Assembly: GCF_041248615.1 (NCBI RefSeq)
Contig: NZ_CP158426.1
Origin: Escherichia coli
GTDB lineage: Bacteria; Pseudomonadota; Gammaproteobacteria; Enterobacterales; Enterobacteriaceae
Length of the DNA stretch: 64,000 nucleotides
Reading direction: 5' to 3' (one strand)
Shown in pieces: positions 5,424 to 27,112 of this stretch (the first letter of the stretch is position 1; each line of letters begins with the position of its first letter). A program made the position numbers and the translations under genes. The notes beneath the pieces are model-generated. The model was not told the DNA's origin, made no database searches, and saw only the letters and a list, made by a program, of their open reading frames with translations.

Positions 5424-7010
5424 ATGGCACATCCACCACGGCTGAATGACGACAAACCGGTGATCTGGACGGTATCTGTAACGCGCCTGTTCGAGCTGTT
5501 TCGCGATATCAGCCTCGAGTTTGATCATCTGGCGAACATTACCCCTATCCAGCTTGGCTTTGAAAAAGCGGTGACCTACATCCGCAAAAAACTGGCAAAC
5601 GAACGCTGTGACGCCATCATCGCTGCTGGCTCTAACGGCGCGTACCTGAAAAGCCGCCTGTCAGTGCCAGTTATTTTGATTAAACCGAGCGGCTACGATG
5701 TGTTACAGGCACTGGCAAAAGCCGGAAAACTCACCTCTTCTATCGGCGTTGTCACTTATCAGGAAACCATTCCAGCGCTGGTGGCGTTTCAAAAAACCTT
5801 TAATTTGCGCCTCGACCAACGTAGCTACATTACCGAGGAAGACGCACGCGGGCAGATTAACGAGCTAAAAGCTAACGGCACCGAAGCGGTGGTCGGCGCG
5901 GGGCTGATTACCGATCTGGCAGAAGAAGCCGGAATGACCGGAATTTTTATCTATTCCGCCGCCACCGTGCGCCAGGCATTCAGCGATGCGCTGGATATGA
6001 CGCGCATGTCGTTACGCCATAACACTCACGATGCCACCCGCAACGCCCTGCGTACTCGTTACGTGCTGGGCGATATGCTCGGTCAATCACCACAGATGGA
6101 ACAGGTACGGCAGACTATTTTGCTGTATGCCCGCTCCAGTGCGGCGGTGTTGATTGAGGGGGAAACGGGGACGGGCAAAGAACTGGCAGCCCAGGCGATT
6201 CATCGGGAATATTTTGCCCGCCACGATGCGCGACAGTGCAAAAAATCGCATCCGTTTGTTGCCGTCAACTGCGGGGCGATTGCCGAATCGCTGCTGGAAG
6301 CAGAGCTGTTTGGCTATGAGGAAGGGGCGTTCACCGGCTCGCGACGTGGAGGTCGCGCCGGGCTGTTCGAAATTGCCCACGGCGGTACGCTGTTTCTGGA
6401 TGAGATTGGCGAAATGCCGCTGCCGTTGCAGACTCGGCTGCTGCGGGTGCTGGAAGAAAAAGAGGTCACCCGCGTCGGCGGGCATCAGCCTGTTCCGGTA
6501 GATGTGCGGGTCATTAGCGCCACTCACTGCAATCTGGAAGAAGATATGCAGCAAGGACGTTTTCGCCGTGATCTGTTTTATCGGCTGAGTATTTTGCGTC
6601 TGCAATTGCCACCACTGCGCGAGCGGGTGGCGGATATTCTGCCGCTGGCGGAAAGCTTTTTGAAAGTGTCTCTGGCGGCGCTCTCCGCCCCGTTTTCTGC
6701 CGCATTACGCCAGGGATTACAGGCAAGCGAAACCGTGCTGGTGCACTACGACTGGCCGGGCAATATTCGTGAACTGCGCAATATGATGGAGCGACTGGCG
6801 CTGTTTTTAAGTGTGGAACCGACGCCGGATTTAACGCCGCAATTTTTGCAGCTGCTACTGCCGGAACTAGCGCGCGAGTCAGCGAAAATTCCCTCCTCAT
6901 CCTTGCTGACACCACAACAGGCACTGGAGAAATTTAATGGCGATAAAACAGCAGCGGCGAATTATTTAGGTATCAGCCGGACGACGTTCTGGCGGCGGCT
7001 GAAAAGCTGA
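5424..7010 (+). CDS. prpR: sigma-54-dependent propionate catabolism activator
   Basis: ORF 5412-7010; likely start [10 protein letters not shown] at 5424 (528 aa); AAA+ sigma-54 interaction motifs ([13 protein letters not shown]), C-terminal HTH. Confidence 0.9.
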
Positions 7011-7110
7011 ACTGCCGAATGCAGCGCGAACGCTTTATCCGGCATAAATTTTAATAGATGATGATCACCGATAAACTTACGCATCGGGGATGTTTACATA
7101 GGTTTCAGAA

Positions 7111-7386
7111 TTACTTCTTCTTATAAATATTTGCCGTGCCGTGAATCTTATTGTCAGTTTGACCAGAGGTCAGCACCAACACATCAGCCCCTTTTTCATC
7201 GGCTTTTTTGATTAAATCTTCTTTTGCATCTGCAGTCGACATTTCATTACTGGTTGAAATATCACCTATTTTTTCATACTGCGATTCAACTTTTTCAAAT
7301 TCCGCTTTGGTCATCAATTCAGCGGCATAGACATTGGTAACGGCAAACGCTAACGCACCGACTAACATTTTAGAGATTATTTTCAT
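7111..7386 (-). CDS. yahO: small periplasmic protein, DUF1471 family
   Basis: 91-aa ORF with signal peptide [21 protein letters not shown]. Confidence 0.8.
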
Positions 7387-12029: not shown

Positions 12030-12997
12030 AGCAGACTCCGGTTCTGATGCTGACTCCACGCCGTGGCACTAATGCTGGCAACGATGATGATGCCGGTGAT
12101 CAATGTTTGCCAGTAAGACGAGACTCCCAATAAATTTAGCCCGTTTTGCATCACTGCCAACAACACCACGCCGAGCAAAGTACCGGTTAACGTGCCGCGC
12201 CCGCCGAGCAAACTAGTGCCGCCAAGCACCACCGCAGCCAGTACTGTCAGCTCATAACCCAGAAGAGAATCGGGGGCGACAGTCATCACCGTCCACGACT
12301 GCACTACACCCGCAGCACCAGACATCAATCCCATATAGCCGTAGACGAAAAGTTGCAGTTTCAGCACGCTAAAGCCGATGCGACTGGCTGATTCGCGGTT
12401 CCCGCCAAGGGCATAAATTTTGCGCCCTACACTGGTGAAATTCATGATAAACGCTGTTAGCAGCACCACCGTAATCATGGCGATCAGCGGCAGACCAAGG
12501 CCATAGTCATAGCCATCAGCATCGGTGTACTTGAACAACATAACCCCCTGCTCAAACCACGGCGGAAAGTCGTACAGCCACACACCTTTACTCAACCATA
12601 ACAGCAGGCCATAGAAAATATTCAGCGTCGAGATAGTGATGATGATAGACGGCACCCGTAGGCGATTAACCAGTAAGGCGTTTATTAAGCCAAGTAAAAT
12701 GCCGATGCCGCCCGCCAGGGCAAACGCGACAGCAAAGTTGCCACCAATTTTTTGCAGCAACAGCACCATGCCGTATTGCGCAATGATGGTCATTGCCGGA
12801 AACGAAATATCAATCCCACCGGAAATTAACACCACAAACAAACCACAGGCGAGAATAGTCAACATGGCATAGTTATTGGCGAGATCGTACAAATTACCGA
12901 ATGTCAGAAACTCGTCGCTGCGCCAGGCAAGGCCAACAAACAGCACCACAATCAGTAATGCCAGCCAGAATTCATGGCGTTTTTTCAGTTCAGCCAT
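12026..12997 (-). CDS. ABC transporter permease (CUT2 sugar-type)
   Basis: 323-aa membrane ORF; start overlaps ATPase stop by 8 nt. Confidence 0.8.
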   Translation of the reverse strand: MAELKKRHEFWLALLIVVLFVGLAWRSDEFLTFGNLYDLANNYAMLTILACGLFVVLISGGIDISFPAMTIIAQYGMVLLLQKIGGNFAVAFALAGGIGILLGLINALLVNRLRVPSIIITISTLNIFYGLLLWLSKGVWLYDFPPWFEQGVMLFKYTDADGYDYGLGLPLIAMITVVLLTAFIMNFTSVGRKIYALGGNRESASRIGFSVLKLQLFVYGYMGLMSGAAGVVQSWTVMTVAPDSLLGYELTVLAAVVLGGTSLLGGRGTLTGTLLGVVLLAVMQNGLNLLGVSSYWQTLITGIIIVASISATAWSQHQNRSLL

Positions 12998-14489
12998 TTA
13001 CCACCTCCGCAATCCTGGCCTGAGAACTGCTGTCAGGCAGGAAGCTATGGGTGATCTGACCTTTTTGCATTACCAAAATCCGGTGGCTTTGATACCACGC
13101 TTCTTCAATTTCATCGCAGATCATCAATACCGCAATGCCATGAGCCGCCAGATCGCTGATAATGCCGTATATTCCTGCTTTGTTGGCGATATCAACACCG
13201 ACAGTCGGGCTATCGAGAATCAACAGTCGTGGCCCAATCGCCAGCCATTTGGCGATCGATACTCGCTGCGCGTTACCCCCGGAAAGCGTATTCACCGGGA
13301 GATGTGGGTCAGAGACTTTGATGGTCAATGCCTTGATTAGCCTGTCCACCAGGTCACGCACTTTAGCTTCACTCAGAAAGCCGAAGCGATCTTTTACCTT
13401 GTGAAAAACAGTGCTAATGATGTTGTCTTCAATAGATTGCGCCATCACCAAACCGCGCGACATGCGATCTTCCGAAACATAACCAATACCGTGGCGGATG
13501 GCGTCCTGGTTACTATGCAGTGTAACCGGCTGACCGTTGATGAGGATCTCACCAGCATCCGGTCGGGTCATACCAAACAGACTCAGACATAATTCCGTGC
13601 GCCCCGCACCAAGCAGGCCAACAATCGACACCACTTCGCCCGCTTCCACCCGCAAGTTAATATTTTGATATTCCCCATGACGACTTAAATTACGCACCTC
13701 CAGCACCGGGGGGCTGGATTTTCCCTGCCACAACTCTCGTACCTGATATTCGAACTCCTGGCCGGTCATCAGAAAACTGAGTTGTTTTGTGGTCATCTCT
13801 GCGGCCGGAAAGGTCCCGACCAGCTCACCATCTTTCAGCACTGAAATACGGTCGGAAACTTCCATCACTTCTTCCAGACGATGACTGACGAAGACCACGC
13901 AGATCCCGCGTTCCCGCAATTGATGCACCACCTGTAATAACCCTTGCACTTCCTGATGGGTCAGCGAAGCGGTTGGTTCATCCATCACGATCAACCGTGC
14001 GTCCTGCGCCAGTGCACGGCAAATTGCCACCAGCTGACAGCGGGCAATTGAAAGCTCAGAAACGAGCGTATCCAGTGGCAATGTGACGTTAATACTGGTC
14101 ATTGCCGCCTGCGCCACCTCACGCAGACGACGGCGGTTAACAAACAGACCGTGGTGATAGTGGTTCACGGCGATATTCTCCCAGACACTCAGGTTAGGAA
14201 ATAAAGAGAGGTCCTGATAAATCACCTGAATCCCCTGCGCCACCGAAGCGGCGGGTGTCAGCTTTGACCAGTTTTTCCCACCAAGCGTAATTTCCGCCCC
14301 CTCATCCGGGCGATAAACACCGGACATAATTTTAATCAACGTCGATTTACCACAGCCGTTTTGCCCGGCAAGGCAGTGCACCTCACCCGACATAAAGTCG
14401 AGAGAAACATCGCGCAGCGCTCGCGTGGCATGAAACGTTTTGTTGATATGACGAAGGGAAAGGAAGGTTTCCATAGCATCCCCTGGCAA
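12990..14489 (-). CDS. ABC transporter ATP-binding protein with two fused ABC domains
   Basis: 499 aa; Walker A GQNGCGKST and second P-loop GLLGAGRTE; signature LSGGNAQRV; alternative start METFLSL at 14474. Confidence 0.85.
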   Translation of the reverse strand: MPGDAMETFLSLRHINKTFHATRALRDVSLDFMSGEVHCLAGQNGCGKSTLIKIMSGVYRPDEGAEITLGGKNWSKLTPAASVAQGIQVIYQDLSLFPNLSVWENIAVNHYHHGLFVNRRRLREVAQAAMTSINVTLPLDTLVSELSIARCQLVAICRALAQDARLIVMDEPTASLTHQEVQGLLQVVHQLRERGICVVFVSHRLEEVMEVSDRISVLKDGELVGTFPAAEMTTKQLSFLMTGQEFEYQVRELWQGKSSPPVLEVRNLSRHGEYQNINLRVEAGEVVSIVGLLGAGRTELCLSLFGMTRPDAGEILINGQPVTLHSNQDAIRHGIGYVSEDRMSRGLVMAQSIEDNIISTVFHKVKDRFGFLSEAKVRDLVDRLIKALTIKVSDPHLPVNTLSGGNAQRVSIAKWLAIGPRLLILDSPTVGVDIANKAGIYGIISDLAAHGIAVLMICDEIEEAWYQSHRILVMQKGQITHSFLPDSSSQARIAEVVNG

Positions 14490-14522
14490 TAAGAATCGGG
14501 GCTTTCGCCCCGAAGAAATGGA

Positions 14523-15509
14523 TTAATAAAGTGAGTCGATATTGTCTTTGTTGACCAGTAATACCTTATGGAAACGGATAATTCGCTTATCCATATCTAC
14601 GTCGGCCTTACCGAGATTCTCCATTTCTAATCCAGGTTTGATCTCTTCACCCTTCAGCAACGTGCTGGCGACGGCCGCGAGTGCGTAACCTGCAGAGGCC
14701 GGATCGTAAGTAATCCCTTCGGTGATATCACCACTTTTAATCAGTGATGCCGCCTGTGAAGGGATCATCATGCCATAGACTGCGACTTTATTTTTCGCCC
14801 GTTTCTCTTTCACTGCACGTCCCGCGCCAATCGGACCGTTTGAACCAAAGGAGACAACCGCTTTCAAGTCAGGATAGGTTTTCATGAGGTCCAGTGTGGT
14901 ACGACGTGAGTCATCCACACTCTCGGCAACCGGCATGCGGCGGGTAACTTCATGCATATCCGGGTAATGCTCTTTCTGGTATTTCACCAGCAAGTCAGCC
15001 CATAAGTTATGCTGCGGCACGGTCAAACTACCCACGTAAATCACATAGCCGCCCTTGCCACCCATGCGTTTCGCCATATGCTCAACATATTCAGCGGCAA
15101 ATTTTTCGTTATCAATGATTTCGATATCCCAGTTAGCACTTGGCTGACCGGGGGATTCGTTGGTCAGAACCACAATTCCGGCATCTCGCGCTTTTTTGAA
15201 TACCGGTTCCAGCACGTTGGCATCGTTTGGCACAATTGTAATTGCATTAACCTTACGGGCGATTAAATCCTCAATAATTTTAACCTGTTGCGGAGCATCA
15301 GTACTTGAAGGCCCCACCTGTGACGCATTAACACCAAAGGCTTTACCCGCCTCAACCACACCTTCGCCCATGCGATTAAACCACGGCATACCATCGACTT
15401 TAGAGATATTCACCACGACTTTTTCCGCTGCCTGGAGCGGCGCAGAAATTAGCGCAGCGCCTAATAACAGCGAAGACACCATATTGATAACAAAACGTTT
15501 ATTCATCAT
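14523..15509 (-). CDS. periplasmic solute-binding protein, LsrB-like
   Basis: 328 aa with signal peptide (ending LQA-AEK); resembles recalled LsrB along its length including C-terminal KDNID motif. Confidence 0.75.
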   Translation of the reverse strand: MMNKRFVINMVSSLLLGAALISAPLQAAEKVVVNISKVDGMPWFNRMGEGVVEAGKAFGVNASQVGPSSTDAPQQVKIIEDLIARKVNAITIVPNDANVLEPVFKKARDAGIVVLTNESPGQPSANWDIEIIDNEKFAAEYVEHMAKRMGGKGGYVIYVGSLTVPQHNLWADLLVKYQKEHYPDMHEVTRRMPVAESVDDSRRTTLDLMKTYPDLKAVVSFGSNGPIGAGRAVKEKRAKNKVAVYGMMIPSQAASLIKSGDITEGITYDPASAGYALAAVASTLLKGEEIKPGLEMENLGKADVDMDKRIIRFHKVLLVNKDNIDSLY

Positions 15510-15759
15510 TTCAGCCTCATTGCAGGGTAGTCAGGAAGTGTTCGCCCAAATTAGCGCGCTGGAGAGAATAAGAATTTTCGAATATTTTTATGCAGAATAA
15601 ACAGCCCTATTTCAGGCAGCTATTAAAAATTTGGTTATAAATATGGACAAAACGGGCAGTAACAATAAGTGTGACAATCATCACGTAAAAAATAGCAAAA
15701 TAAACAAAATTAGCGATACTTTATGTTTGTGAGCTTATTTCGCGTAGAAAAATAGTTAT

Positions 15760-16170
15760 CTACACAACGTCAATAAGGGCATATTCTTCAAAGATAACGT
15801 CCATTTCGGGTGAATAGCATCCTTCTGCCTGGAAAAAACGACGGTGTTCATTACGCCAATATTCAAGACTGAGGTCACCTTCACCTTCCTTACGGGCAAG
15901 CTCCGCGGTGACATCAGAAAAGCGCAGTAAATGCAGGCCAATCACTCTGATAACACAGACAGGCTCACCACGGCTATTTTCTACAATCTTATACTCACCA
16001 ATCAGCGGAAATGCGTTGTCTTCAATACATCCCGCCAGCGAACCACAGGAAGCTGTTTTAACACCAGTCGCAATCAACGTTGCGAGGTGATCGGCCAACG
16101 CTGCTGAATCGCCAAAAGTACAAAAGGAAGCATGGGGATATTTTTGTGAGATTTTTTCTTTTATGGTCAT
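15760..16170 (-). CDS. ASCH-domain (PUA-like) protein
   Basis: ORF 15760-16200; likely start MTIKEK at 16170; GxKT motif (ATGVKTAS) typical of ASCH domains. Confidence 0.55.
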   Translation of the reverse strand: MTIKEKISQKYPHASFCTFGDSAALADHLATLIATGVKTASCGSLAGCIEDNAFPLIGEYKIVENSRGEPVCVIRVIGLHLLRFSDVTAELARKEGEGDLSLEYWRNEHRRFFQAEGCYSPEMDVIFEEYALIDVV

Positions 16171-16468
16171 GAGAATATTTTCGCGATTACGGAAAAACAA
16201 ATCACATCTTAATTACTGTTGATAACCATCAGCAAGAGTATCATTGGTTTTTCGATACTGAATCTTTTTTATCCGAAGCAGGTCACATTTATGGCCTGAT
16301 AAATACCTTTGTTAAAACTCACTTTTGTGTATTTCTCTCAAATAATCCCCTGGAAATTATGCCGGGAGATTATAAAGTTCAGGATCATTCATTAACAAAC
16401 CATTCCCGCCCCACTCCCTGGGGCTTAAATCTCTTACGATTCACCGTTGCAGACATATCAAATGCGCA

Positions 16469-17851
16469 TCAACCTGCCACACTCCCCCACACCAGTTGCC
16501 CTTTATGGAACGTCGCCGTTCTCGGCGAGATACGCGCCACCGCCTCGGCGGAACAGGAGGCGTCCACCAGCACAAAGCTGGCGTCATCCTGCGCTTTGGG
16601 CCAGACGCGCTCGCCTTTTTCGTTGAGCGGCAATACATCGCCAGTGGCTAAAAACAGCGAACGGGACAAATTCTGTTCGTTAGGACGAATATAGAGCTGC
16701 GCGTAGAGATTGGCTTTTTCCAGCATGTCGCCCAGGCCGTAAGGCGACCAGTGGTCGATAACGCTGTCGGTGCCGGTCATCACTTTTACGCCTTTGTCGT
16801 GCAGTTGTTTAAGCGGCATATGTAGCGTGCCAATCGGCACCGTCGAGGCGATAGAAATTTGCTGCGCCGCCATCCGGTGCGCCAGTTCATCTACCTGTTG
16901 CTCATTGAGCGTTGCCAGCGCAAAGGCGTGGCTGATGGTCAGCTTGCCCTTCAGTTGCGGCGTTTTCTCCACCGTTTCAACCATATAATTGATGGCTGCC
17001 ACGCCTGCCGGAGTGGTTTCGTGCAGGTGAATATCAACGCCTTTGTCGTAGTCCAGCGCAATCTGGAACATGGTGTCGAGGGATTTTTCCATCGCGCCAT
17101 CAACACTGGTCGGGTCCAGCCCGCCGACGTAATGCGCCCCCGCCTGCATCGCTTCGCGCATTAAGGGTTCTGATTTCGACAGCAGCAAACCGTGCTGCGG
17201 GAAGGCGACAATTTCACACTCGAAGCCCGCCTGACGTCGCGCCAGAACCGCCTGCAAATTTTGCAGATTTTTCAGGCCGGAAACCGGTTCGATATTGCAG
17301 TGGCTGCGGGCAATGGTGGTGCCTTTCGATTGCAATAAATCGATCAGTTTTTCCGCCCGCTCCTGAGTATACGGTTGCAGTTCCGGCAGCATTTTCTGCT
17401 CAAGCTTAATCATGTCCTGGATGGTGGTGCCTGCCGGACGATTGAGCGAGCGCCACGGCCCGCCGTAAAAGGTTTTGTCGAGATGAATATGCATGTCGCG
17501 GGTAGTGGGCAGCATCAGCTTACCGCCAGCGTCATAGTGCGGCAGCGTGGCGTCCGGATGCTGCTTGTTCTCGCGCAGGGCAACAATTTTGCCGTTCTGA
17601 ATCTCTACGGTCTGGTGCGCCGTGCGGGTCTGTACTGCCACACCGTTTTCGTAGTCAAAACCGGTTTCCAGCAGCACGTTGTCGAGATAGTAGTGCGGGT
17701 CAGTGATTTTCATGGTGTTATTCGCGTCGCAATGGATTGTGCCAGAGACTGCCGCATGGGCGAGCGGCACAGAGGTACCAAACAGCGCGGCGGCGGTGAC
17801 CATCTTACCGCTCTGGCTCAGAAACTCACGGCGGCTATTGTTTTCTTTCAT
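16469..17851 (-). CDS. yahJ: metal-dependent amidohydrolase/deaminase with twin-arginine signal peptide
   Basis: 460 aa; N-terminus MKENNSRREFLSQSG...AHA (Tat motif SRREFL); amidohydrolase-superfamily HxH-type sequence. Confidence 0.85.
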   Translation of the reverse strand: MKENNSRREFLSQSGKMVTAAALFGTSVPLAHAAVSGTIHCDANNTMKITDPHYYLDNVLLETGFDYENGVAVQTRTAHQTVEIQNGKIVALRENKQHPDATLPHYDAGGKLMLPTTRDMHIHLDKTFYGGPWRSLNRPAGTTIQDMIKLEQKMLPELQPYTQERAEKLIDLLQSKGTTIARSHCNIEPVSGLKNLQNLQAVLARRQAGFECEIVAFPQHGLLLSKSEPLMREAMQAGAHYVGGLDPTSVDGAMEKSLDTMFQIALDYDKGVDIHLHETTPAGVAAINYMVETVEKTPQLKGKLTISHAFALATLNEQQVDELAHRMAAQQISIASTVPIGTLHMPLKQLHDKGVKVMTGTDSVIDHWSPYGLGDMLEKANLYAQLYIRPNEQNLSRSLFLATGDVLPLNEKGERVWPKAQDDASFVLVDASCSAEAVARISPRTATFHKGQLVWGSVAG

Positions 17852-17860
17852 CTTACGTCC

Positions 17861-18811
17861 TTACGTTTTAATAATATGGGTGCCCGTTTCACCACGCAGC
17901 GCCGCAGGCAGGCATTCCGGCGTGGTGATAATCACTTCTTTACCGCCCTGCTCCAGGAACGTCAGGCTGGCGATGATTTTTGGCAACATGCTGCCGGGTG
18001 GGAAATGCCCTTCCTGCATATAGCGGGTCATGGTGGCAATATCCACCCGATCCAGCGCCTGCTGCTGCGGCTTGCCAAAGTGAATACACACTTTTTCCAC
18101 GCCCGTGGTGATCACCAGAATGTCGGCGTGAATTTCGCGAGCCAGTAGCGCGGTAGAGAGATCTTTGTCGATAACCGCGTCCACGCTTTGGTAATCCCCC
18201 GCTTCAGTACGCACTACCGGAATTCCACCGCCGCCCGCGCCAATCACCACAAAGCCTTGCTGGATCAGCGCCTTAATGGCAGGTGCTTCGACAATACGTT
18301 TCGGTTCCGGCGAGGCGACCACGCGGCGATAGCCCCGTCCGGCATCTTCAACAAAACGCCAGTCAGGATTTGCCTTTTGTAATTCGTCACGCTGGCTGTC
18401 ACTAAAGAATGCGCCGATGGGCTTGGTGGGATGAGCAAATCCCGGATCGTTTTTATCCACTTCCACCTGAGTCACCACGGTGACGGCTTTTTTCTCGCCG
18501 TGACGCGCCAGCCGGTTGTTCAGCGCCTGCTGGATCAGATAGCCAATGCCGCCTTGCGTATCCGCCACACAGTTCGCCAGCGGCGTTAAGGGCAGCCCTT
18601 CGCGCTCGTGGGCAATCTCCGCGCGGCGTAAATCCAGCCCGACCTGCGGCCCGTTGCCGTGGGTCAGCACAATGTCGTAATCGGAAGCCAGCATTTCCAG
18701 CACCGTATCGGCGACGGCCTTCACCGCCTCCGCCTGATGCTCAATCGACTGGCTGGCGTTATCTTTGATAATGCTGTTGCCACCAATGGCAACGACCACA
18801 AGCTCTTTCAT
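17861..18811 (-). CDS. yahI: carbamate kinase-like protein
   Basis: ORF 17861-18985; conserved start MKELVVVAIGGNS at 18811 gives 316 aa; amino-acid kinase fold motifs. Confidence 0.85.
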   Translation of the reverse strand: MKELVVVAIGGNSIIKDNASQSIEHQAEAVKAVADTVLEMLASDYDIVLTHGNGPQVGLDLRRAEIAHEREGLPLTPLANCVADTQGGIGYLIQQALNNRLARHGEKKAVTVVTQVEVDKNDPGFAHPTKPIGAFFSDSQRDELQKANPDWRFVEDAGRGYRRVVASPEPKRIVEAPAIKALIQQGFVVIGAGGGGIPVVRTEAGDYQSVDAVIDKDLSTALLAREIHADILVITTGVEKVCIHFGKPQQQALDRVDIATMTRYMQEGHFPPGSMLPKIIASLTFLEQGGKEVIITTPECLPAALRGETGTHIIKT

Positions 18812-18905
18812 GTTGTTATGTCCGCTACAGAGGGTGATGGGGTTATGAGAGTGAGGTTGCCCCTCTCCCCAGAAGGGAGAAGGGATCGTAAGGTGCGTTT
18901 GCAGG

Positions 18906-20324
18906 TCAGACGCCGTAACGTTCGCACCAGCCGAGAATGGCTTTCTCGAAGCAGGCGAATGGTGGATGCACAATGCCCGCACCAATCATGCCGACGCCCG
19001 CATCTTTATGGGCGATGGCGGTGTTGATCACCGGCAGAATGCCGCTGCTGCCCACGCGGGTGATGTCGATTGCCGACGGCACGCCCATAAAACCGAGCAG
19101 CGGAATGGTGACGTTGGGGTTTTCACCGAGAGTGATTTCACGCATCTGGCGGGAGAAATCGATAGCCTCTTCCACCGTACCGCCCACCAGCGCGACGATC
19201 GCGGGCGCGGTCGCCATGGCAAATCCGCCAATGCCGTAGGTTTCAGTGATGGCGCTGTCGCCGATATCCAGCCCCGAATCTTCCGGCTTATAACCGGCAA
19301 ACATCGGCCCGATCACCTGCTGCGCCGGACCGGTAAACCATTGCCCCGGTAATCCGCTGACCCGCAGGCCGAACTCGACGCCGTTACGCGCCATGGTGGT
19401 GACCACGGTGCTGTATTCGATGCCGTGCGCCGCATCCATCGCCGCTTTACACATCGCCATCCACGTCGGGCCGGAGAAGTAGTCGCTGCTGGCGACAAAC
19501 TCAAACACTTCGCGCTGTTGCTCGACGGAATAACCCGCCTGAATAATCCCCTGCGTCAGCGCCTGAATCAGCAACGTCGTCCCGGCGTTATTGCGGTTAT
19601 GGCATTCATCGCCCATATGCAGCGCCTGCGCCAGCATTAAGCGCAGATCGATTTCGCCGATAATTTTCATCGCGTCGCGCAGCATTGGCCCCTGCACATC
19701 GCGCATCCAGTTGAGGCGGTCAATCACGCTCTGGTCGTTAGCGCCCATACGCAAAATCTTCGCCATCTGCTCGCTCATATTGGTGTAAGCGATGTTGCCG
19801 TAGGTTTTGTTTTTTACGATGTGCATAAACATCGAGGCCGAGGTAACACCCGCCATCGAACCCACGCAGTCGTGCTCGTGGCACGGCGAGAAGGTGATCT
19901 CCCCGGAGGCCGCCAGTTCAGCCGCCTCATCGAGATCTTTCGCCAGCCCTTCGAACACCAGCGCTCCGGTGACCGCGCCTTTCATCGCGCCACACATTTT
20001 TTCCCAGGTGATCGGCGGTCCGGCGTGAAGAATGGTTTTCGGCGTCATACCCGGCACCACGTTAATCGCCTGATCAAAACCAATCAGCACCGGATGCGAC
20101 TGGATAATGCGCTCCAAAGCCTGCTGGTTAGCGGCGGCGATTTTGTCTGCCAGCGGCGAATCGGCAATGTTATCCAGCGCCTGCACCACCTGCATATTGC
20201 CCTGCCCCGGCGGCGTCCAGTCGAGTTGAGTCACTTCTACATGCTGCTTTTTCAGGTCATCGCTAAACATGGCGATGCCGACGTTAATAACGTTCAATGG
20301 TTGGCTAAACAGTGACTGGCTCAT
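18906..20324 (-). CDS. yahG: DUF1116 protein (YlbE paralog)
   Basis: 472-aa ORF; start shares one nt with yahF stop. Confidence 0.8.
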   Translation of the reverse strand: MSQSLFSQPLNVINVGIAMFSDDLKKQHVEVTQLDWTPPGQGNMQVVQALDNIADSPLADKIAAANQQALERIIQSHPVLIGFDQAINVVPGMTPKTILHAGPPITWEKMCGAMKGAVTGALVFEGLAKDLDEAAELAASGEITFSPCHEHDCVGSMAGVTSASMFMHIVKNKTYGNIAYTNMSEQMAKILRMGANDQSVIDRLNWMRDVQGPMLRDAMKIIGEIDLRLMLAQALHMGDECHNRNNAGTTLLIQALTQGIIQAGYSVEQQREVFEFVASSDYFSGPTWMAMCKAAMDAAHGIEYSTVVTTMARNGVEFGLRVSGLPGQWFTGPAQQVIGPMFAGYKPEDSGLDIGDSAITETYGIGGFAMATAPAIVALVGGTVEEAIDFSRQMREITLGENPNVTIPLLGFMGVPSAIDITRVGSSGILPVINTAIAHKDAGVGMIGAGIVHPPFACFEKAILGWCERYGV

Positions 20325-21871
20325 CAGGCTTCCTCCCCTTTGCAGATAAATTCACGCGCCAGCAATCCGGTATTGGTGCTGCTGCTGGCCAGAATCACTC
20401 CGGCATCAAGCAACATCTGGCTTTGTTGTTCTAACGATGGCGTATCAAGATCGGTACCCAGCACATAGGCGAGAATGATCAACTCACGTCCTTCGGCAGC
20501 GGCGATCGCTTTCGCCTCTTTGATCGCCTCGATGGTGGAACCGACCGGATCTTCATGCGATCCAAACCCGAGCACAAAATCCATCACGATCACCGCCACT
20601 TCTGGATCGCGCGCCTCTTCGATCAAGCGGCTGATACGGTTGGTGGGGTCAATCATTGGATGCGGCTTGCCGTTGGTGAAGTCGTCATCGCCAAAGTCGA
20701 GGAAGGTGTGTTTGATGCTGCGGTTGATATCTTGCAGGCGGAATTCAGGATCGGGCTGAATGTTGCTGTAGACATCGCCATGTTTTTCCATCACCGCGAA
20801 CATGGTTTCGTCACACAGCGTGCCGCCGCAGAACAGGCCACGAATGTATTTCTGCTGCGGTTGCAGACGCGCACGCACATCCGCAATCAACGGCTGGTTC
20901 AGGGTATGCAAGTCGAGATGTTCTTGTTTCACACCGGAGAGCATCACCGCTTTTAGTGCCGCCTCTTTGGTGCCGCGAGCAAACTGTAGCCCCTGCTCAT
21001 CCACTGGCGTTTCGCCACGACCGAGGAAGCAGACCACCACTGGCTTACGGCAGGCGCGTGCGCGTTCCAGCACTTTGCGGGCCACCGCAGGCGCTGGCGG
21101 TTTGGAGATAAGCACAATGATTTCAGTTTGCGGATCGTTTTCCAGCATCCCGATAGCGTCGAGCATCATCAGGCCGCCGATTTTCTCGCTCAGGTCGCGC
21201 CCGCCGGTGCCAATCAGTTGCGAAACGCCGCCGCCAAATTCATGAATGCGGACGCTCAGTTCCTGGCTACCGGTGCCGGATGCGCCAACAATACCGATGT
21301 TGCCACGACGCACGGCGTTACCAAAGCAGAGCGCCGCGCCGTTGATAATCGCCGTACCGCAGTCTGGCCCCATCATCAGCAGCCCTTTTTCGTGGGCCAA
21401 CTGTTTGAGCGCCAGTTCATCTTCAACTGAGACGTTATCGGAAAACAGCATCACGTTAAGATCGTTTTGCAGCGCCTGACGCGCTTCGCGAGCGGCAAAC
21501 AGACCGTTGACCGAAATCACCGCCAGGTTACTTTCCGGGATATGCTTTTTGGCGCTGGCAATAGTGGCATAGCGTGCTTCATGTGAACCAGTTTGAGCTT
21601 TGGTGTTGAACAGTTCTTCAATCTCCACCAGCAACTGCTCGTTGTCTGCGCCCGCTTTGCCGTTGATGACAATCATCAGGTCGCCGTTTTTCGCCTGCTC
21701 CAGTTCCGGCGTCAGCAGCCCTAAATTCTTCAGCACGCCTTTGTTCATTTCGGTCGCCATCGCCACAAATGCCTGCTCGACGCCGTCGAGTTTATTTGCA
21801 CGCGTGGAGATAGACATCAGCGAGACAGAATCAAAATAGGTATTCGGTTTAATGACTATTTTAACTGACAT
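20324..21871 (-). CDS. yahF: FdrA-like protein (succinyl-CoA synthetase alpha / CoA-binding fold)
   Basis: 515-aa ORF; glycine-rich CoA-binding-like segments; overlaps yahE by 11 nt. Confidence 0.8.
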   Translation of the reverse strand: MSVKIVIKPNTYFDSVSLMSISTRANKLDGVEQAFVAMATEMNKGVLKNLGLLTPELEQAKNGDLMIVINGKAGADNEQLLVEIEELFNTKAQTGSHEARYATIASAKKHIPESNLAVISVNGLFAAREARQALQNDLNVMLFSDNVSVEDELALKQLAHEKGLLMMGPDCGTAIINGAALCFGNAVRRGNIGIVGASGTGSQELSVRIHEFGGGVSQLIGTGGRDLSEKIGGLMMLDAIGMLENDPQTEIIVLISKPPAPAVARKVLERARACRKPVVVCFLGRGETPVDEQGLQFARGTKEAALKAVMLSGVKQEHLDLHTLNQPLIADVRARLQPQQKYIRGLFCGGTLCDETMFAVMEKHGDVYSNIQPDPEFRLQDINRSIKHTFLDFGDDDFTNGKPHPMIDPTNRISRLIEEARDPEVAVIVMDFVLGFGSHEDPVGSTIEAIKEAKAIAAAEGRELIILAYVLGTDLDTPSLEQQSQMLLDAGVILASSSTNTGLLAREFICKGEEA

Positions 21872-22724
21872 AATTCCCTCCGTAGGTTTGGCTCAGCGCA
21901 CAACCATCGGCCATGCCATACAGCATGTCGCAGCCGGAACTGGAGCCAATATGTTTAATTTTTTCTATTGCCTGAGTTGCGTTCCCAGGGACACCATAAA
22001 TAATGTTATGAATAAAACGATGAATATTTTCCCGGCAGCGTTGTTGTAATGCGGCTTCCAGCGTTATGGCACTTAATAACGTGGTATTATTTCTGCCGCG
22101 TTGCAGACCGAGATAAAATTCCTCTTTGTATTTTTCCGCCGGATGTCCGGAAATAAATAAAATAAGCGCCAGACCTGTTAAATAATCGTCGGCTGATGGC
22201 GTAAGGCCAATCCCTAAGCCCATCATACTGGCGACTGCTGAGGCGATATTTTGTTTATCGTTTACGGCCTGAATAACTGCCCGTCGTTTAATATGTAATT
22301 CTTTATTTAACGCCTGATAAAACGGATTATCGCCGCAATAATTAAACAGGGTTTCATTTTCCCCCAGGTGCTGATGAATAATGTCATGCCACTGTTGCCA
22401 GGCGATAAGGTGAAAATTCACAGCGGTCATTTGCAAGGTTGGGGACAGCCAACGCCGACAACGACTCATCTCTATATGAAGATGTTGACCAACCGTAATG
22501 CCTTGATCGTCAAACTGAACCTTATCACCATGCCGGAACAGACCATCAAAGTGAGTGAGTGCCAACCGACAACTGTTTGGCGCATTGTCGTACTCTTCAC
22601 AAAGCAGCGTCAGCAACTGCTGGCGGGCCGGAAGTGCGATATTTACCGCTCTGGCAAAGACCTGTTCAACCTGTCCTTGCCCCCGCTGCGCCAGAAAATC
22701 AGCATCCGCAGTTAGCGCCCACAC
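21861..22724 (-). CDS. yahE: DUF2877 protein (YlbF paralog)
   Basis: 287-aa ORF upstream of and overlapping yahF. Confidence 0.75.
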   Translation of the reverse strand: MWALTADADFLAQRGQGQVEQVFARAVNIALPARQQLLTLLCEEYDNAPNSCRLALTHFDGLFRHGDKVQFDDQGITVGQHLHIEMSRCRRWLSPTLQMTAVNFHLIAWQQWHDIIHQHLGENETLFNYCGDNPFYQALNKELHIKRRAVIQAVNDKQNIASAVASMMGLGIGLTPSADDYLTGLALILFISGHPAEKYKEEFYLGLQRGRNNTTLLSAITLEAALQQRCRENIHRFIHNIIYGVPGNATQAIEKIKHIGSSSGCDMLYGMADGCALSQTYGGNYVS

Positions 22725-22763
22725 ACACCGTCTTTCTGGTGTGTTGATAGCAAGCCTCCCGGT

Positions 22764-23369
22764 TTATGCACCTGCGGCAATCAGTAACTGTGCAATCTCT
22801 TCAAAGCCTCGTTCCCGCGCCAGTTCCAGCGGCGTTTTGCCATATTTATCCGTCATGTGCGGGCTGGCACCGTGTTCCAGCAATAACTGGACAATCGCCT
22901 GCTGTTTAATCCCGCCATCATTAAGCACAATTGCTTCCAGTAGCGGCGTCCAGCCAACATGGTTGGTCTGGTTAACGTTAATCTCCGTATGCGCCAAAAG
23001 CTCTTTTACAATACTTAAATGGCCTTTTTCACAGGCAGGCGTCAGGCCGACACCGCCAAAACGGGTGACGCAATTAAGATCGGGTTTAGCCGGTAAAATA
23101 ATCCGTAACAGGGTTAAATCGCCGGTCAGGCAGCTAATTAAAAAAGGATTTGAACATATTTGATCTTGCTTATTAATATCTGCTCCGGCATCAATTAATG
23201 CCTGAACGCAAGCATATTGCTGATATAAACTTGCCAGCGTAATTGCCGTTTTCCCCTGACGATCGCAGGTATTAATATCGACACCCAGCGCAAGGCATGT
23301 TTTTACTTTATCGATATCACCCTGTTGCGCAGCCAATAAATAGTCGGCAGGTAGATTTTTTATAGTCAT
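22764..23369 (-). CDS. yahD: ankyrin-repeat protein
   Basis: 201 aa; repeated motifs of the type GKTAITLASLYQQYACVQALIDAGADIN. Confidence 0.8.
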   Translation of the reverse strand: MTIKNLPADYLLAAQQGDIDKVKTCLALGVDINTCDRQGKTAITLASLYQQYACVQALIDAGADINKQDQICSNPFLISCLTGDLTLLRIILPAKPDLNCVTRFGGVGLTPACEKGHLSIVKELLAHTEINVNQTNHVGWTPLLEAIVLNDGGIKQQAIVQLLLEHGASPHMTDKYGKTPLELARERGFEEIAQLLIAAGA

Positions 23370-23626
23370 TCACATTCCCCTGATTTTTGTGGCTGTTTTC
23401 GATGAATTGAGAATAGCAACGATAATCTGATAAAAGAACCCGCTTAAATTTAATTCGCCGTATTTCGCCTTTTTGTTGAATGATGTTCAACAATCTTTTC
23501 GCAGTGTGCGGTAGTGCAATATTTGTTTCTTTGACCCGATACCCTTTCACTCAATCAGGTTTTATTTCTCTATAGTCTGCACATGTAAGAGTAGCTTTCG
23601 TCCATGTCTAACCAGAGGGGAACAAG

Positions 23627-24124
23627 ATGAACGGACTCACGGCAACGGGTGTCACCGTCGGTATTTGTGCAGGGCTTTGGCAGTTAGTGTCTTCACATGT
23701 CGGGCTCTCTCAGGGATGGGAATTATTAGGAACTATTGGCTTCGTCGCCTTTTGCAGTTTTTATGCCGCAGGCGGCGGTAAATCGGGGTTTATCAGAAGC
23801 CTGGCGGTTAATTATTCCGGGATGGTGTGGGCGTTTTTCGCCGCGCTGGCTGCCGGTTGGCTGGCCTCGGTGAGTGGATTGTCCACGTTCTGGGCGAGCG
23901 TGATTATGACTGTACCCTTCTCGGCGGTGGTGGTCTGGCAAGGACGTTTCGGTTTACTGTCTTTTATTCCCGGAGGCTTTCTCGGCATGACGCTATTTTT
24001 TGCCAGCGGGATGAACTGGACGGTGACATTACTGGGTTTTCTGGCGGGTAACTGCGTGGGGATAATTTCAGAATATGGCGGACAAAAATTAAGCGAAGCG
24101 ACGACTAAACGCGACGGGTATTAA
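23627..24124 (+). CDS. yahC: small inner-membrane protein
   Basis: 165-aa hydrophobic ORF. Confidence 0.7.
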   Translation: MNGLTATGVTVGICAGLWQLVSSHVGLSQGWELLGTIGFVAFCSFYAAGGGKSGFIRSLAVNYSGMVWAFFAALAAGWLASVSGLSTFWASVIMTVPFSAVVVWQGRFGLLSFIPGGFLGMTLFFASGMNWTVTLLGFLAGNCVGIISEYGGQKLSEATTKRDGY

Positions 24125-24215
24125 AAGTTATTCAAAAATGATTATCTATCTTTAACCGATACCTCTACAGTCATAGCTGGAGAAATTCATAGTAGATAAT
24201 GGCGGGAATGGTTTA

Positions 24216-25148
24216 ATGAACTCAATTTTTACCGAAGAGAATCTGTTGGCATTTACTACCGCTGCGCGTTTTGGCAGTTTCAGTAAAGCCGCAGAAGAGT
24301 TGGGTTTAACCACTTCCGCCATTAGCTACACCATCAAGCGAATGGAAACAGGGCTGGATGTGGTGCTGTTCACTCGCAGTACCCGCAGCATTGAGTTAAC
24401 GGAGTCCGGGCGTTATTTTTTCCGCAAAGCTACCGACCTGCTGAATGATTTTCACGCCATCAAACGCAGCATCGATACTATTTCGCAGGGTATAGAAGCA
24501 CGGGTGCGCATTTGTATTAACCAACTGCTTTATACGCCCAAACACACCGCACGCTTATTACAGGTACTGAAAAAGCAGTTTCCAACCTGCCAGATTACCG
24601 TGACGACCGAAGTGTATAACGGCGTCTGGGATGCGATTATTAATAATCAGGCGAATATTGCTATCGGCGCGCCCGACACACTGCTGGACGGCGGCGGCAT
24701 TGATTACACGGAGATTGGCGCAATTCGCTGGGCTTTTGCTATCGCCCCGGATCACCCATTAGCCTTTGTGCCGGAACCCATCGCCGAAAGCCAACTGCGT
24801 CTCTATCCTAATATCATGGTGGAGGACACCGCGCATACGATTAATAAAAAAGTGGGCTGGTTGCTGCATGGGCAGGAGTCGATTCTGGTGCCAGATTTCA
24901 ACACCAAATGTCAGTGCCAGATTTTAGGTGAAGGGATTGGTTTTTTGCCGGATTACATGGTCCGTGAGGCGATGGCGCAATCCCTGCTGGTTACCCGACA
25001 AATCCATAATCCGCGCCAGGATTCACGCATGTTACTCGCAACTCAGCATTCTGCTACGGGTCAGGTGACGCAGTGGATTAAAAAACAATTTTCGCCAAAT
25101 GGCATATTAACGGGGATCTATCAGGATTTACTGCATCGGGAGAATTAA
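24216..25148 (+). CDS. yahB: LysR-family transcriptional regulator
   Basis: 310 aa; N-terminal HTH (FSKAAEELGLTTSAISYTIKRME). Confidence 0.85.
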   Translation: MNSIFTEENLLAFTTAARFGSFSKAAEELGLTTSAISYTIKRMETGLDVVLFTRSTRSIELTESGRYFFRKATDLLNDFHAIKRSIDTISQGIEARVRICINQLLYTPKHTARLLQVLKKQFPTCQITVTTEVYNGVWDAIINNQANIAIGAPDTLLDGGGIDYTEIGAIRWAFAIAPDHPLAFVPEPIAESQLRLYPNIMVEDTAHTINKKVGWLLHGQESILVPDFNTKCQCQILGEGIGFLPDYMVREAMAQSLLVTRQIHNPRQDSRMLLATQHSATGQVTQWIKKQFSPNGILTGIYQDLLHREN

Positions 25149-25189
25149 TCGCTGCCAACCTCCCGATGCGCTGTGAATAGCGGTTTACA

Positions 25190-26278
25190 TCAACCACCTG
25201 CTTTCATTACCCATTCAGAGATAAATTTATTACCCGGTACTGGCGGAGAGTACAAATAGCCCTGCAAAAAGTGAACGCCTTTGCCGATCATTAAATCCGC
25301 CTGCTCCTGGGTTTCTACCCCTTCCGCCACGATACTCAGACCAGGCTTACGCGCCAGTTCGACAATATTGTCCACAATATGACCGGATATTTCGTCCACG
25401 CTCGCCATTTGCACAAATGACTTATCGATCTTAATAAAATCGACCGGAAACGCCTGCAGATAACGATAGGTCGCATAACCCGTACCAAAGTCATCCAGCG
25501 CAAAGGTAATGTTGTGCTGATGAAGGCTGTCAAATATCGCTCTGGCTTCTGGCGTTACCGGAATAGGGTTACGTTCCGTTAGCTCGAGAACCAGTTTGAT
25601 TTTATCGTTACCTAATTTCTTAACCAGGTTCAGACACTCTTTTTCAAATCCCGCAGCCAAAAAACAACCCGCCGAGACGTTGATGCCAATATGGAAATTG
25701 TCCGGCAGCAAATGTTTTACCGGCATCAGAATATCCGCAGTCTGTTTCATCAACTGGCGAGTCATTATGACGATAAGACCAGATGACTCCGCCAGAGGAA
25801 TAAACTGATCCGGTGGGATAATTCCCGTTTGTGGATGTTCCCAGCGGACAAGCACCTCACAGCCCGTCAGTACCCCAGTCTGCGCGCAGAAAACCGGTTG
25901 GATCCACGGTTTAAATTCATGGTTTTCCAACGCCAGACTGATGGCTTCAGGCGTGACGATATGGTGATAGTGATTATCATTAATATATTTGTGACTATTA
26001 TTACCCGTGGCGGATATGATCTCCGGATTGTACTGAAAGAAAATATCCCGCCAGAAAGTAATATCGCTCTGAATCCCCAGTTTCTCAAAGAGCTGTTTCT
26101 TTTGATGTGAAATGGTCTTTGCACTGCGATTTCTGTACTGTGATATTTCTGTTACAGACATTCCCTGCATCAGCAGCTTGAGTAGCAGTCGTTCTTTCTC
26201 GGATACGCTACCAGGCAATGACAAATGAACCGTTGTACCGAACTCTTGCAGAAAAACACGAAAATCACATGAATTCAT
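25190..26278 (-). CDS. pdeL: c-di-GMP phosphodiesterase with LuxR-type HTH and EAL domain
   Basis: ORF 25190-26284; start MNSCDF at 26278 gives 362 aa; EAL-domain motifs (ELTER, DDFGTGY). Confidence 0.88.
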   Translation of the reverse strand: MNSCDFRVFLQEFGTTVHLSLPGSVSEKERLLLKLLMQGMSVTEISQYRNRSAKTISHQKKQLFEKLGIQSDITFWRDIFFQYNPEIISATGNNSHKYINDNHYHHIVTPEAISLALENHEFKPWIQPVFCAQTGVLTGCEVLVRWEHPQTGIIPPDQFIPLAESSGLIVIMTRQLMKQTADILMPVKHLLPDNFHIGINVSAGCFLAAGFEKECLNLVKKLGNDKIKLVLELTERNPIPVTPEARAIFDSLHQHNITFALDDFGTGYATYRYLQAFPVDFIKIDKSFVQMASVDEISGHIVDNIVELARKPGLSIVAEGVETQEQADLMIGKGVHFLQGYLYSPPVPGNKFISEWVMKAGG

Positions 26279-27112
26279 GAACACACCTTTTATCTTTTAT
26301 CGCTGTTCAGTATGAGTGATTACCTGTGGATTCCTGAGCACACATAAGGGGTAACCATAAACATCAGCGATGCCATACGCATAACATCCCACATCACTAT
26401 CAAAAAGATTATCTTTACCTCTGATGCTCGCTCAAAAACAGTTACGCTAAATACCTTAAAAAGGTAATCACAAGTCAAACTCAGGAGATAATCACGCAAG
26501 AATGCAATATTAAAATTCAGATACTCATTTTTGGTAATAAAGAAGTAGTTGGACTATTTCAATATTTATAATTTCCCACTACGTATTGACGCCCATTCAT
26601 GAGTAAAGGCGCATTATATGAATTTAACAATCCAGATCAACTGAAAATACCTCAACCTCATAAACACATAGCGTCAACATTCAATGACATAATGAGTAAA
26701 GATGTTGGTTATGCATACACGTCATTACTCTATGCCTATCCCTTAACAACCTGCTTTTTAAGGCTGAATCCATTCAGCAATAGATAACCAACATTATAAC
26801 AATGACAATAAAAACAATATTTAAAACAATCAATAAAATATCAGACACAGACAATTAAACCTTAAACAACAAACAGTTACATTGATTTTAGTTGATTTGC
26901 GCTACGCGTTTCCCATGAATAAAGCGTCATTTCAAATTAGCACCAATATTTACATTAAATAAGACTAAGCTTATTGAACATTCACAACAGTCCAAGCGTA
27001 GGTTTTGGGCTTCAATAGTTCTTTTCTTTTTTATTATCTGTTGCCTGGCAATCATCAATCGATACTAAGGGCTTAACTGTACACAGATATAACGTATCAA
27101 GAGGTAAGAGAA

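Follow-up and report, generated by a model that had tools for sequence, protein, structure and literature searches.

The yahDEFGIJ operon of Escherichia coli, a candidate acyl-ureide catabolic module paralogous to the AllFGHK system

The window analyzed here, a stretch of 64,000 nucleotides (nt) from Escherichia coli (NCBI RefSeq assembly GCF_041248615.1, contig NZ_CP158426.1), contains the yah locus, a reverse-oriented segment of the E. coli chromosome in which the genes yahE, yahF, yahG and yahI occupy positions 17861-22724. Judged by their sequences, the products of these genes are paralogues, and not orthologues, of the AllH, AllF, AllG and AllK proteins encoded in the allantoin locus. The four genes are part of a larger transcription unit, yahD-E-F-G-I-J, which exceeds 17861-22724 and is accompanied by the divergent genes yahB and yahC. 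The locus is probably a self-contained catabolic module of the allFGHK class, in which an acyl-ureide would undergo phosphorolysis, and for which external oxalurate or parabanate is the leading candidate substrate; other acyl-ureas, such as biuret-, triuret- or ureidomalonate-like compounds, are nearly as likely. The paralogy of the yah and all sets is already contained in current annotation, in which the RefSeq product names read 'AllH family', 'YlbE family', 'FdrA' and 'carbamate kinase family'. New here, and unproven, are the six-gene operon, the ankyrin partner, the loss of a carrier with yahC in its stead, the exported AtzC-like enzyme, the shifted boundary between the F and G subunits, and a YahE component that can be lost or fused.

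The system that serves as reference has been characterized in detail. Purified AllF-AllG-AllH was identified as the oxamate carbamoyltransferase, with both biochemical and genetic proof (Kim & Kim 2024, PMC11326118). It interconverts oxalurate plus phosphate with oxamate plus carbamoyl phosphate, and AllK is its partner kinase (PMC11326118, PMC9843812). In the all system, allH is required for full activity (PMC11326118). The yah genes go unmentioned in that study. An earlier interpretation of this stretch, made without database searches (the sequence-only reading), had presented the carbamoyltransferase role of the FdrA-YlbE-YlbF trio (AllF-AllG-AllH) as a proposal; the role was right, but it is no longer merely proposed.

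The family assignments of that reading were upheld for all four proteins. YahE matches the Pfam family AllH (PF11392, formerly DUF2877; 4.2e-28) over model positions 1-108 of 109, and YahG matches AllG (PF06545, formerly DUF1116; 2.8e-88) over the entire model (positions 1-215). The predicted structure of YahE is confident (predicted local distance difference test score, pLDDT, of 93), and no solved relative of the model was found. YahF contains the Pfam CoA_binding and Ligase_CoA domains, arranged as the two-domain core of the succinyl-coenzyme A (CoA) synthetase alpha subunit plus one more Ligase_CoA domain; it scores 491.5 bits on the NCBIfam FdrA model (NF004760; cut-off 433), matches the solved FdrA structure 3DMY at 2e-82, and has in common with AllF the motif G(K/R)PHPMIDP. 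YahI scores 649 bits on the NCBIfam carbamate kinase model PRK12352 (NF009007; cut-off 266) and falls slightly under the cut-off of the arcC equivalog TIGR00746 (346.4 versus 358.25 bits). It aligns over its full length with solved carbamate kinases (1E19, 2e-82; 1B7B, 7.5e-73). The motifs GGN, HGNGPQVG, TKPxG, GGGGxPV, VIDKDL and GSMxPK have generally known roles in the carbamate kinase family, and in the alignment to 1E19 YahI retains all of them, in the forms GGN, HGNGPQVG, TKPIG, GGGGIPV, VIDKDL and GSMxPK.

Pairwise alignment with the K-12 proteins of the allantoin locus gave significant matches throughout, at 39% identity for YahF and AllF (E 2e-102), 45% for YahG and AllG (E 4e-118), 25% for YahE and AllH (E 2e-10) and 38% for YahI and AllK (E 1e-57). 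The paralogy that had been suggested with FdrA, YlbE, YlbF and a kinase thus holds, and it extends to the regulators, since YahB and AllS are 38% identical (E 4e-73). Among NCBIfam models, YahB scores best on AllS, with 268 bits, and on PunR, with 239 bits, and in neither case reaches the equivalog cut-off. In view of identities of only 39, 45 and 25% for the three subunits, and since both sets coexist in E. coli, the Yah proteins are not orthologues of the oxamate carbamoyltransferase proper (EC 2.1.3.5). Nor does the yah locus hold the position in the allantoin regulon beside allDCE: it sits between the bet genes/pdeL and yahK, with the all locus some 200 kb away in K-12. The arrangement had been said to mirror that of the allantoin locus. 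The same families are indeed combined with a kinase, but their order is H-F-G-K rather than F-G-H-K.

The boundary between the F and G subunits differs between the two systems. The YahG segment 12-53 is aligned with positions 513-554 of AllF (E 1e-4), and residues 8-52 of YahG match positions 509-553 of the FdrA profile (E 1.6e-4). Owing to this shift, YahF falls 40 residues short of AllF, and YahG exceeds AllG by 53 residues.

The genes of the yah locus in the window are arranged as follows.

yahB, 24216..25148, + strand: LysR-type regulator, divergent from the operon, paralogue of AllS
yahC, 23627..24124, + strand: small DUF1097 membrane protein (RefSeq name), divergent
yahD, 22764..23369, - strand: ankyrin-repeat protein, first gene of the operon
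yahE, 21861..22724, - strand: AllH-family (DUF2877) subunit, 287 residues
yahF, 20324..21871, - strand: AllF/FdrA-family subunit, 515 residues
yahG, 18906..20324, - strand: AllG-family (DUF1116) subunit, 472 residues
yahG-yahI spacer, 18812..18905, - strand: 94 nt, with a short hairpin, TCTCCC-TTCT-GGGGAGA
yahI, 17861..18811, - strand: carbamate kinase family, 316 residues from the ATG of MKELVV, 951 nt in RefSeq
yahJ, 16469..17851, - strand: amidohydrolase with a signal for twin-arginine translocation (Tat), final gene of the operon

All six open reading frames (ORFs) of the operon, yahD, E, F, G, I and J, are intact in this genome. Their successive junctions consist of a 39-nt gap, an 11-nt overlap, a 1-nt overlap, and gaps of 94 and 9 nt. 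The two overlaps, which had been pointed out before, were read directly from the sequence as ATGTCAGTTAA for yahE/yahF (11 nt) and TGATG for yahF/yahG (1 nt). The sequence-only reading had confined the set to 17861-22724; its four genes lie where they were placed, but yahD, yahJ, yahB and the position of the carrier (see below) were left out. The carbamate kinase gene does follow the trio on the same strand, but it is set off from yahG by the 94-nt spacer and does not overlap it. A TTG-initiated version of the yahI ORF (374 residues, from 18985 and running into yahG) was rejected as a spurious extension in favor of the start at 18811; the 316-residue protein matches the carbamate kinase models from residue 1, and the RefSeq start agrees. 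A scan of the coding strand for promoters and terminators placed no site within yahDEFGIJ and no promoter-like site upstream of yahD, with counts at or below the shuffled expectation, such that the scan was uninformative. A yahDEFGIJ operon has also been put forward from ribosome profiling in enterohaemorrhagic E. coli (EHEC) (PMC4765031). Three complete E. coli genomes match positions 15500-24200 of the window at 100% identity, and 4977 of 5426 complete E. coli genomes (∼92%) contain at least 80% of this region.

Conservation of the locus was assessed in the closest 80 loci from a scan of a genome collection, all of which belong to other Enterobacterales or to Aeromonas species, and, for more distant contexts, in a small sample of nine single look-ups. 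YahG is the most conserved component of the set: its identity is 88% in Aeromonas and 78% in Janthinobacterium, falls to 76% in both Brevibacillus and Psychrobacillus, and is still 70% for structure 3CLQ from Enterococcus faecalis. Since identities of 70-88% within this group contrast with 45% to AllG, the Yah type constitutes an orthologous group of its own. The gene order ankyrin-AllH-AllF-AllG-carrier-carbamate kinase recurs in Beta- and Gammaproteobacteria and in Bacilli. The regulator of the cluster is an AllS-like LysR protein in Proteobacteria and a PucR-type protein in Bacilli; a YahB orthologue flanks every Enterobacterales and Aeromonas locus with upstream cover, as well as that of Janthinobacterium. 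A carbamate kinase gene was included in the cluster in all 65 loci with enough downstream sequence, and YahJ is encoded at the end of the Enterobacterales clusters and in one of the two Aeromonas loci.

Several clusters of Bacilli contain additional genes, coding for a 150-residue deaminase of the cytidine deaminase (CDA) fold, ATZ/TRZ-like amidohydrolases and two or three YahJ-family enzymes, together with an M20 protein resembling carbamoylases and allantoate amidohydrolases, an esterase and RidA proteins. Neither a ring-opening enzyme of the AtzD/barbiturase type nor a hydantoinase was seen in the clusters examined. In Peribacillus simplex (locus L091, 501-3196), genes for a carbonic anhydrase, a cyanase (CynS) and an NCS2 permease lie directly upstream of the PucR gene and the cluster.

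The loci differ in their carrier gene. A multi-span membrane protein of 514-519 residues is encoded between yahG and yahI in 55 of the 70 loci covered on both flanks. The remaining 15 contain yahC instead, and no locus had both genes or neither. The yahC-only lineages are Escherichia, Kluyvera, Pseudocitrobacter, Raoultella, some Klebsiella and Citrobacter amalonaticus. As the loci are related, this mutual exclusivity may reflect a single evolutionary event. Presence of the carrier is probably the older state, since it is also found in Janthinobacterium, Aeromonas, Providencia and a Neobacillus; Escherichia, to judge from gene content, has lost the gene. The yahC gene, with a ratio of nonsynonymous to synonymous substitution rates (dN/dS) of 0.07-0.12, may encode a replacement carrier. 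In K-12 the gap between yahG and yahI measures 421 nt (L092:8745-9165) and is annotated as yahH, as compared with 94 nt and one hairpin in the present genome. The K-12 gap has been described as filled by REP23 (repetitive extragenic palindromic) elements (PMC11551758), and in EHEC the gap was reported to contain REP elements and to be translated (PMC4765031).

The 517-residue carrier matched no Pfam or NCBIfam model. Profile alignment with hhalign to GhxQ and XanQ was not significant (E 0.03), though the region of transmembrane segment 10 was aligned. Its AlphaFold model is poor (pLDDT 55), and a Foldseek search with it retrieved UraA-fold carriers only (BicA, SLC26, SVCT1, UraA, UapA and AZG2; E 7e-6 to 1e-3). 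In view of the low confidence of the model, a UraA-fold carrier of anions or nucleobases is suggested as a fold-level hint. Brevibacillus and Paenibacillus possess an NCS1 carrier instead, nearest to allantoin permease (434-457 bits versus a cut-off of 620). In Enterococcus (L086:11198-12379) and Trichococcus (L087:11485-12669), a membrane protein of ∼393 residues is encoded after the AllG-type gene, at the position of the carrier; neither copy matched an NCBIfam model, and the best Pfam match of the E. faecalis copy had an i-Evalue of 0.16.

The operon begins with yahD, which is present in all 75 loci with upstream cover. The matches of YahD are exclusively of the ankyrin type, and an ankyrin protein, or one that combines ankyrin and tetratricopeptide repeats, is encoded in the clusters of Janthinobacterium, Aeromonas, Brevibacillus, Trichococcus, Neobacillus, Paenibacillus and Peribacillus. 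YahD is probably a protein-binding partner of the YahEFG enzyme. The fdrA gene was originally identified through multicopy suppression of an ftsH mutant. The yahD-yahE-yahF region of strain UTI89 was among the strong hits in a screen of cloned fragments for filamentation upon over-expression (PMC6206680).

YahJ, at the other end of the operon, is a member of the PRK06846 subfamily (716 bits on the NCBIfam model; cut-off 447). Its scores on three cytosine deaminase models (103, 83 and 70 bits) are all below the respective cut-offs of 438, 483 and 403. The nearest solved relatives are structures of AtzC, the N-isopropylammelide isopropylaminohydrolase (6NBO, 4e-44; 2QT3, 3e-30), followed by CodA at ∼1e-16. 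The N-terminus, SRREFLSQSGKMVTAAALFGTSVPLAHA, combines a twin-arginine motif, a hydrophobic stretch and an AxA cleavage site (SRREFLSQSG...PLAHA). The RRxF motif occurs in all 76 YahJ orthologues, in 65 by the strict pattern and in 11 by eye. This conserved Tat signal suggests that YahJ acts outside the cytoplasm in Enterobacterales, where it probably converts an external precursor. In the literature its export is accepted: YahJ is included among the Tat substrates without known function, and a yahJ deletion strain had a competitive index of 0.70 in mice (PMC7549933). Members of the PRK06846 subfamily that lack a signal peptide adjoin the cluster in Trichococcus and Peribacillus, and three Amidohydro_3 genes similar in size to yahJ, putative relatives, lie alongside the cluster of Oceanobacillus.

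Selection on the locus was examined by comparing members of the clade without the carrier. The dN/dS values are 0.02-0.05 for yahG and 0.03-0.08 for yahF, yahI and yahJ. Such low values, a sign of strong purifying selection, within a clade that has lost the carrier argue that the locus is not simply decaying. The value for yahE is 0.15-0.29, which makes it the fastest-evolving and least constrained component. The gene is absent from 25 of 75 clusters, in which ∼55 nt separate yahD from yahF. In Zophobihabitans entericus (CP050253; L064, 7536-9989), YahE and YahF are fused in an 817-residue ORF, with the YahE-like part at residues 12-297 and the YahF-like part at 302-817; this natural fusion argues for physical association of the two proteins.

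In Escherichia albertii NBRC 107761 (L008, 5616-7169), yahF is broken up into one ORF at 5616-6266 and another at 6318-7169; it is probably a pseudogene in that strain, or else the break is an assembly error. Between Pseudocitrobacter faecalis (L010) and E. coli, synonymous divergence is 0.19-0.33 for yahF, yahG, yahI and yahJ, as opposed to values greater than 1.4 for yahE, yahD and yahC and saturation for yahB. This mosaic pattern suggests that the two genera have recently exchanged the yahFGIJ half of the locus.

Taken together, a pathway can be proposed for the locus. YahJ, once exported by the Tat system, would hydrolyse or deaminate an external nitrogen heterocycle in the periplasm. The product would be imported by the 517-residue carrier in most genera, and by another route, possibly YahC, in Escherichia. 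YahF and YahG, with YahE as an accessory subunit and probably bound to YahD, would cleave the carbamoyl group from the acyl-ureide with phosphate; by homology to AllFGH, the products would be carbamoyl phosphate and the de-carbamoylated amide. YahI would then transfer the phosphate to ADP, yielding ATP, ammonia and CO2, if the reaction runs in this direction, and the substrate would act through YahB to induce the operon.

The choice of external oxalurate or parabanate as leading substrate is based on the enterococcal pathway, on the Yah-type genes of E. faecalis, on the AllS-like regulator and on the anion-carrier-like character of the lost carrier. Enterococci are classical for this activity: according to the titles of refs 78 and 79 in PMC6022934, their oxamate transcarbamylase was reported to be induced by oxalurate or parabanic acid, with a dedicated third carbamate kinase. 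The FdrA, DUF1116 and DUF2877 genes of E. faecalis (3CLQ; locus L086) are of the Yah type and are accompanied by genes for a PucR-type regulator and a membrane protein. At L086 9751-11155, the AllG-type gene is called as two ORFs of 77 and 384 residues, the former of which corresponds to the YahG-like N-terminal segment; the crystallised 3CLQ protein (421 residues) is devoid of the segment homologous to that of YahG.

Several observations weigh against the pathway in this form. A K-12 strain deleted for allFGH produces no oxamate from allantoin (PMC11326118), despite its intact yah locus. Either the chromosomal yahEFG genes were not expressed under those conditions, or their products do not use oxalurate; the allantoin-derived pool of oxalurate seems excluded as the working substrate under the conditions tested. 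In the same study, the allFGH deletion complemented with allGH gave 16% oxamate. YahF or YahE might have supplied the missing subunit, a point on which the authors are silent. In the E. faecalis locus the AllG gene is frameshifted and no kinase gene is adjacent, and YahE is missing from a third of the related clusters, though allH is needed in the all system. Without a dedicated carrier, Escherichia may have an incomplete version of the pathway. The nearest solved relative of YahJ acts on a triazine, not on an imidazolidine, and the deaminases, M20 carbamoylase-like enzyme and esterase of the Bacilli clusters point to a precursor more elaborate than parabanate. Carbamoyl transfer by the Yah proteins is a predicted activity, by homology to AllFGH. 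No riboswitch or other RNA clue to the ligand emerged from positions 15500-26500 of the window or from seven related loci. The literature search yielded no functional study of yahE, yahF, yahG, yahI or yahJ, in keeping with the earlier statement that the substrate of this second set is unassigned, and the yah genes are counted among the clusters of uncharacterised 'y-ome' genes (PMC11551758).

A less favored alternative is that the same class of enzyme acts on an acyl-urea or ureide other than oxalurate, prepared by YahJ and related deaminases. Candidates would include biuret, triuret or formylbiuret derived from a triazine-like ring, as well as ureidomalonate and N-carbamoyl compounds that stem from creatinine or a pyrimidine. 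The kinship of YahJ with AtzC and then with cytosine deaminases speaks for such a substrate, as do the deaminases, amidohydrolases, M20-like protein and RidA proteins added in Bacilli, and the identity of YahG to its orthologues across phyla (76-79%) as opposed to AllG (45%). In nitrifiers, moreover, AllFGHK-like genes adjoin genes for biuret and triuret hydrolases (PMC12625717), and an avian E. coli strain encodes a third set of FdrA, DUF1116 protein and carbamate kinase alongside a carrier resembling CodB and a hydrolase resembling RutB (PMC12928451), which implies that the family is modular with regard to substrate. Yet neither an AtzD/barbiturase-type enzyme nor a hydantoinase was seen in the clusters examined, the accessory genes vary by lineage without indicating a single compound, and the proposal is in fact a sub-case of the phosphorolytic mechanism outlined above, from which it differs in the substrate alone. 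A broader version, likewise tentative and on balance not favored, would regard the Yah cluster, together with AtzC-like amidohydrolases, as a distinct cross-phylum system for the catabolism of a natural nitrogen heterocycle, in which an FdrA-type enzyme of four components would form carbamoyl phosphate by a new kind of cleavage, with a gain of ATP. The ring could be an oxidised purine product such as parabanate, a triazine-like compound, or one derived from creatinine or a pyrimidine; the 517-residue protein would found a new family of UraA-fold carriers, with YahC (DUF1097) as its functional replacement.

The other two explanations deny the locus such a function. That the Escherichia locus is a cryptic or decaying remnant, left without a physiological role after loss of the carrier, is improbable. 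The carrier is indeed absent from Escherichia and its close relatives, the gap in K-12 is filled by REP elements annotated as yahH, yahF is split in E. albertii NBRC 107761, all of the genes belong to 'y-ome' clusters (PMC11551758), and the chromosomal yah copy did not rescue the allFGH deletion (PMC11326118). These points are countered by six intact ORFs in a region of which at least 80% is kept in 4977 of 5426 complete genomes, by the dN/dS of 0.02-0.08 for yahG, yahF, yahI and yahJ in the very clade that lacks the carrier, by the occurrence of yahC in exactly those lineages without the carrier, by the small fitness cost of yahJ deletion in mice (PMC7549933) and by the ribosome footprints reported in the operon in EHEC (PMC4765031). 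Far less probable still is the older annotation of YahF as an acyl-CoA synthetase of the nucleoside diphosphate (NDP)-forming type, by which the locus would activate or cleave an acyl-CoA. It derives from the CoA_binding and Ligase_CoA domains, from similarity to succinyl-CoA synthetase alpha (1e-18 to 1e-10) and from the RefSeq product name, which still reads 'acyl-CoA synthetase FdrA'. When YahF is aligned to the alpha subunit 2YV2, however, the phosphohistidine loop 'MGHAGA' falls in a gap of YahF, and neither an ORF nor an annotated gene for an ATP-grasp (beta) partner was seen in the locus or its flanks. The deleted loop and the missing partner make a CoA ligase reaction unlikely, and on these grounds the assignment was rejected. 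The characterised paralogue is, moreover, a carbamoyltransferase that needs AllG and AllH (PMC11326118), and in all 65 loci with enough downstream sequence the cluster comes with a carbamate kinase.

The preservation of YahG at 76-79% identity in Bacilli and Betaproteobacteria implies an important natural substrate common to these bacteria. Identification of the substrate of the proposed acyl-ureide module would shorten the E. coli 'y-ome' by six to eight genes, provide a role for the third E. coli carbamate kinase, and establish a further way for bacteria of gut and soil to obtain ATP and ammonia from a ureide. It might also assign genes to the enterococcal oxalurate/parabanate pathway of the 1960s-80s. 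According to the comparative data, a genus that has kept the carrier, such as Citrobacter or Enterobacter, is better suited to such work than K-12.

The flank of the operon beyond yahJ differs between strains. In the present genome, a gene for an ASCH-domain protein (15760-16170, - strand) and a four-gene ATP-binding cassette (ABC) transporter of the sugar/autoinducer-2 (AI-2) type (window 12990-16200) lie between yahJ and yahK; K-12 has none of these genes, and yahK directly follows yahJ there. The guanine-plus-cytosine content drops to ∼0.41 around 15500-16500.

Among known systems, AllFGHK is the closest counterpart. AllFGH disclosed a class of multi-subunit transcarbamylases in 2024, and yahDEFGIJ is the sister of the AllFGHK system. 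In both, the three protein families and a carbamate kinase are encoded in one operon, and the LysR activator AllS has its paralogue in YahB. The two differ in that the tail of AllF (its last ∼45 residues) corresponds to the first ∼55 residues of YahG, and in that the all locus is devoid of both an ankyrin gene and a gene for a Tat-exported amidohydrolase, which in yah are represented by yahD and yahJ. Most genera add a carrier gene to the yah-type cluster. Finally, the all genes lie beside the allantoin genes, whereas the yah set is located elsewhere and forms a separate orthologous group across phyla.

The enterococcal oxalurate/parabanate pathway (Tigier & Grisolia 1965; Vander Wauven et al. 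1986; via PMC6022934) follows a like logic, in which an external acyl-ureide gives rise to carbamoyl phosphate and then to ATP. No genes are known to have been assigned to the enterococcal enzyme, and its link with Yah is proposed here; the E. faecalis locus examined, unlike yah, has neither an ankyrin gene nor an adjacent kinase gene. The arginine and agmatine deiminase pathways and YgeW-YqeA of E. coli likewise proceed by phosphorolysis of a ureido compound to carbamoyl phosphate and ATP, with an upstream hydrolase or deiminase and a carrier (PMC6022934). The AllFGH-type transferase is related neither by sequence nor by fold to the classical family of aspartate and ornithine transcarbamylases (ATCase/OTCase) (PMC11326118); the classical enzymes are homotrimeric, whereas the AllFGH type is built of two or three different subunits. 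As for YahJ, its closest solved matches are in the AtzC/cytosine deaminase branch and it fits the PRK06846 model, but it is distinguished from that branch by the conserved Tat signal and by cytosine deaminase scores below the cut-offs.

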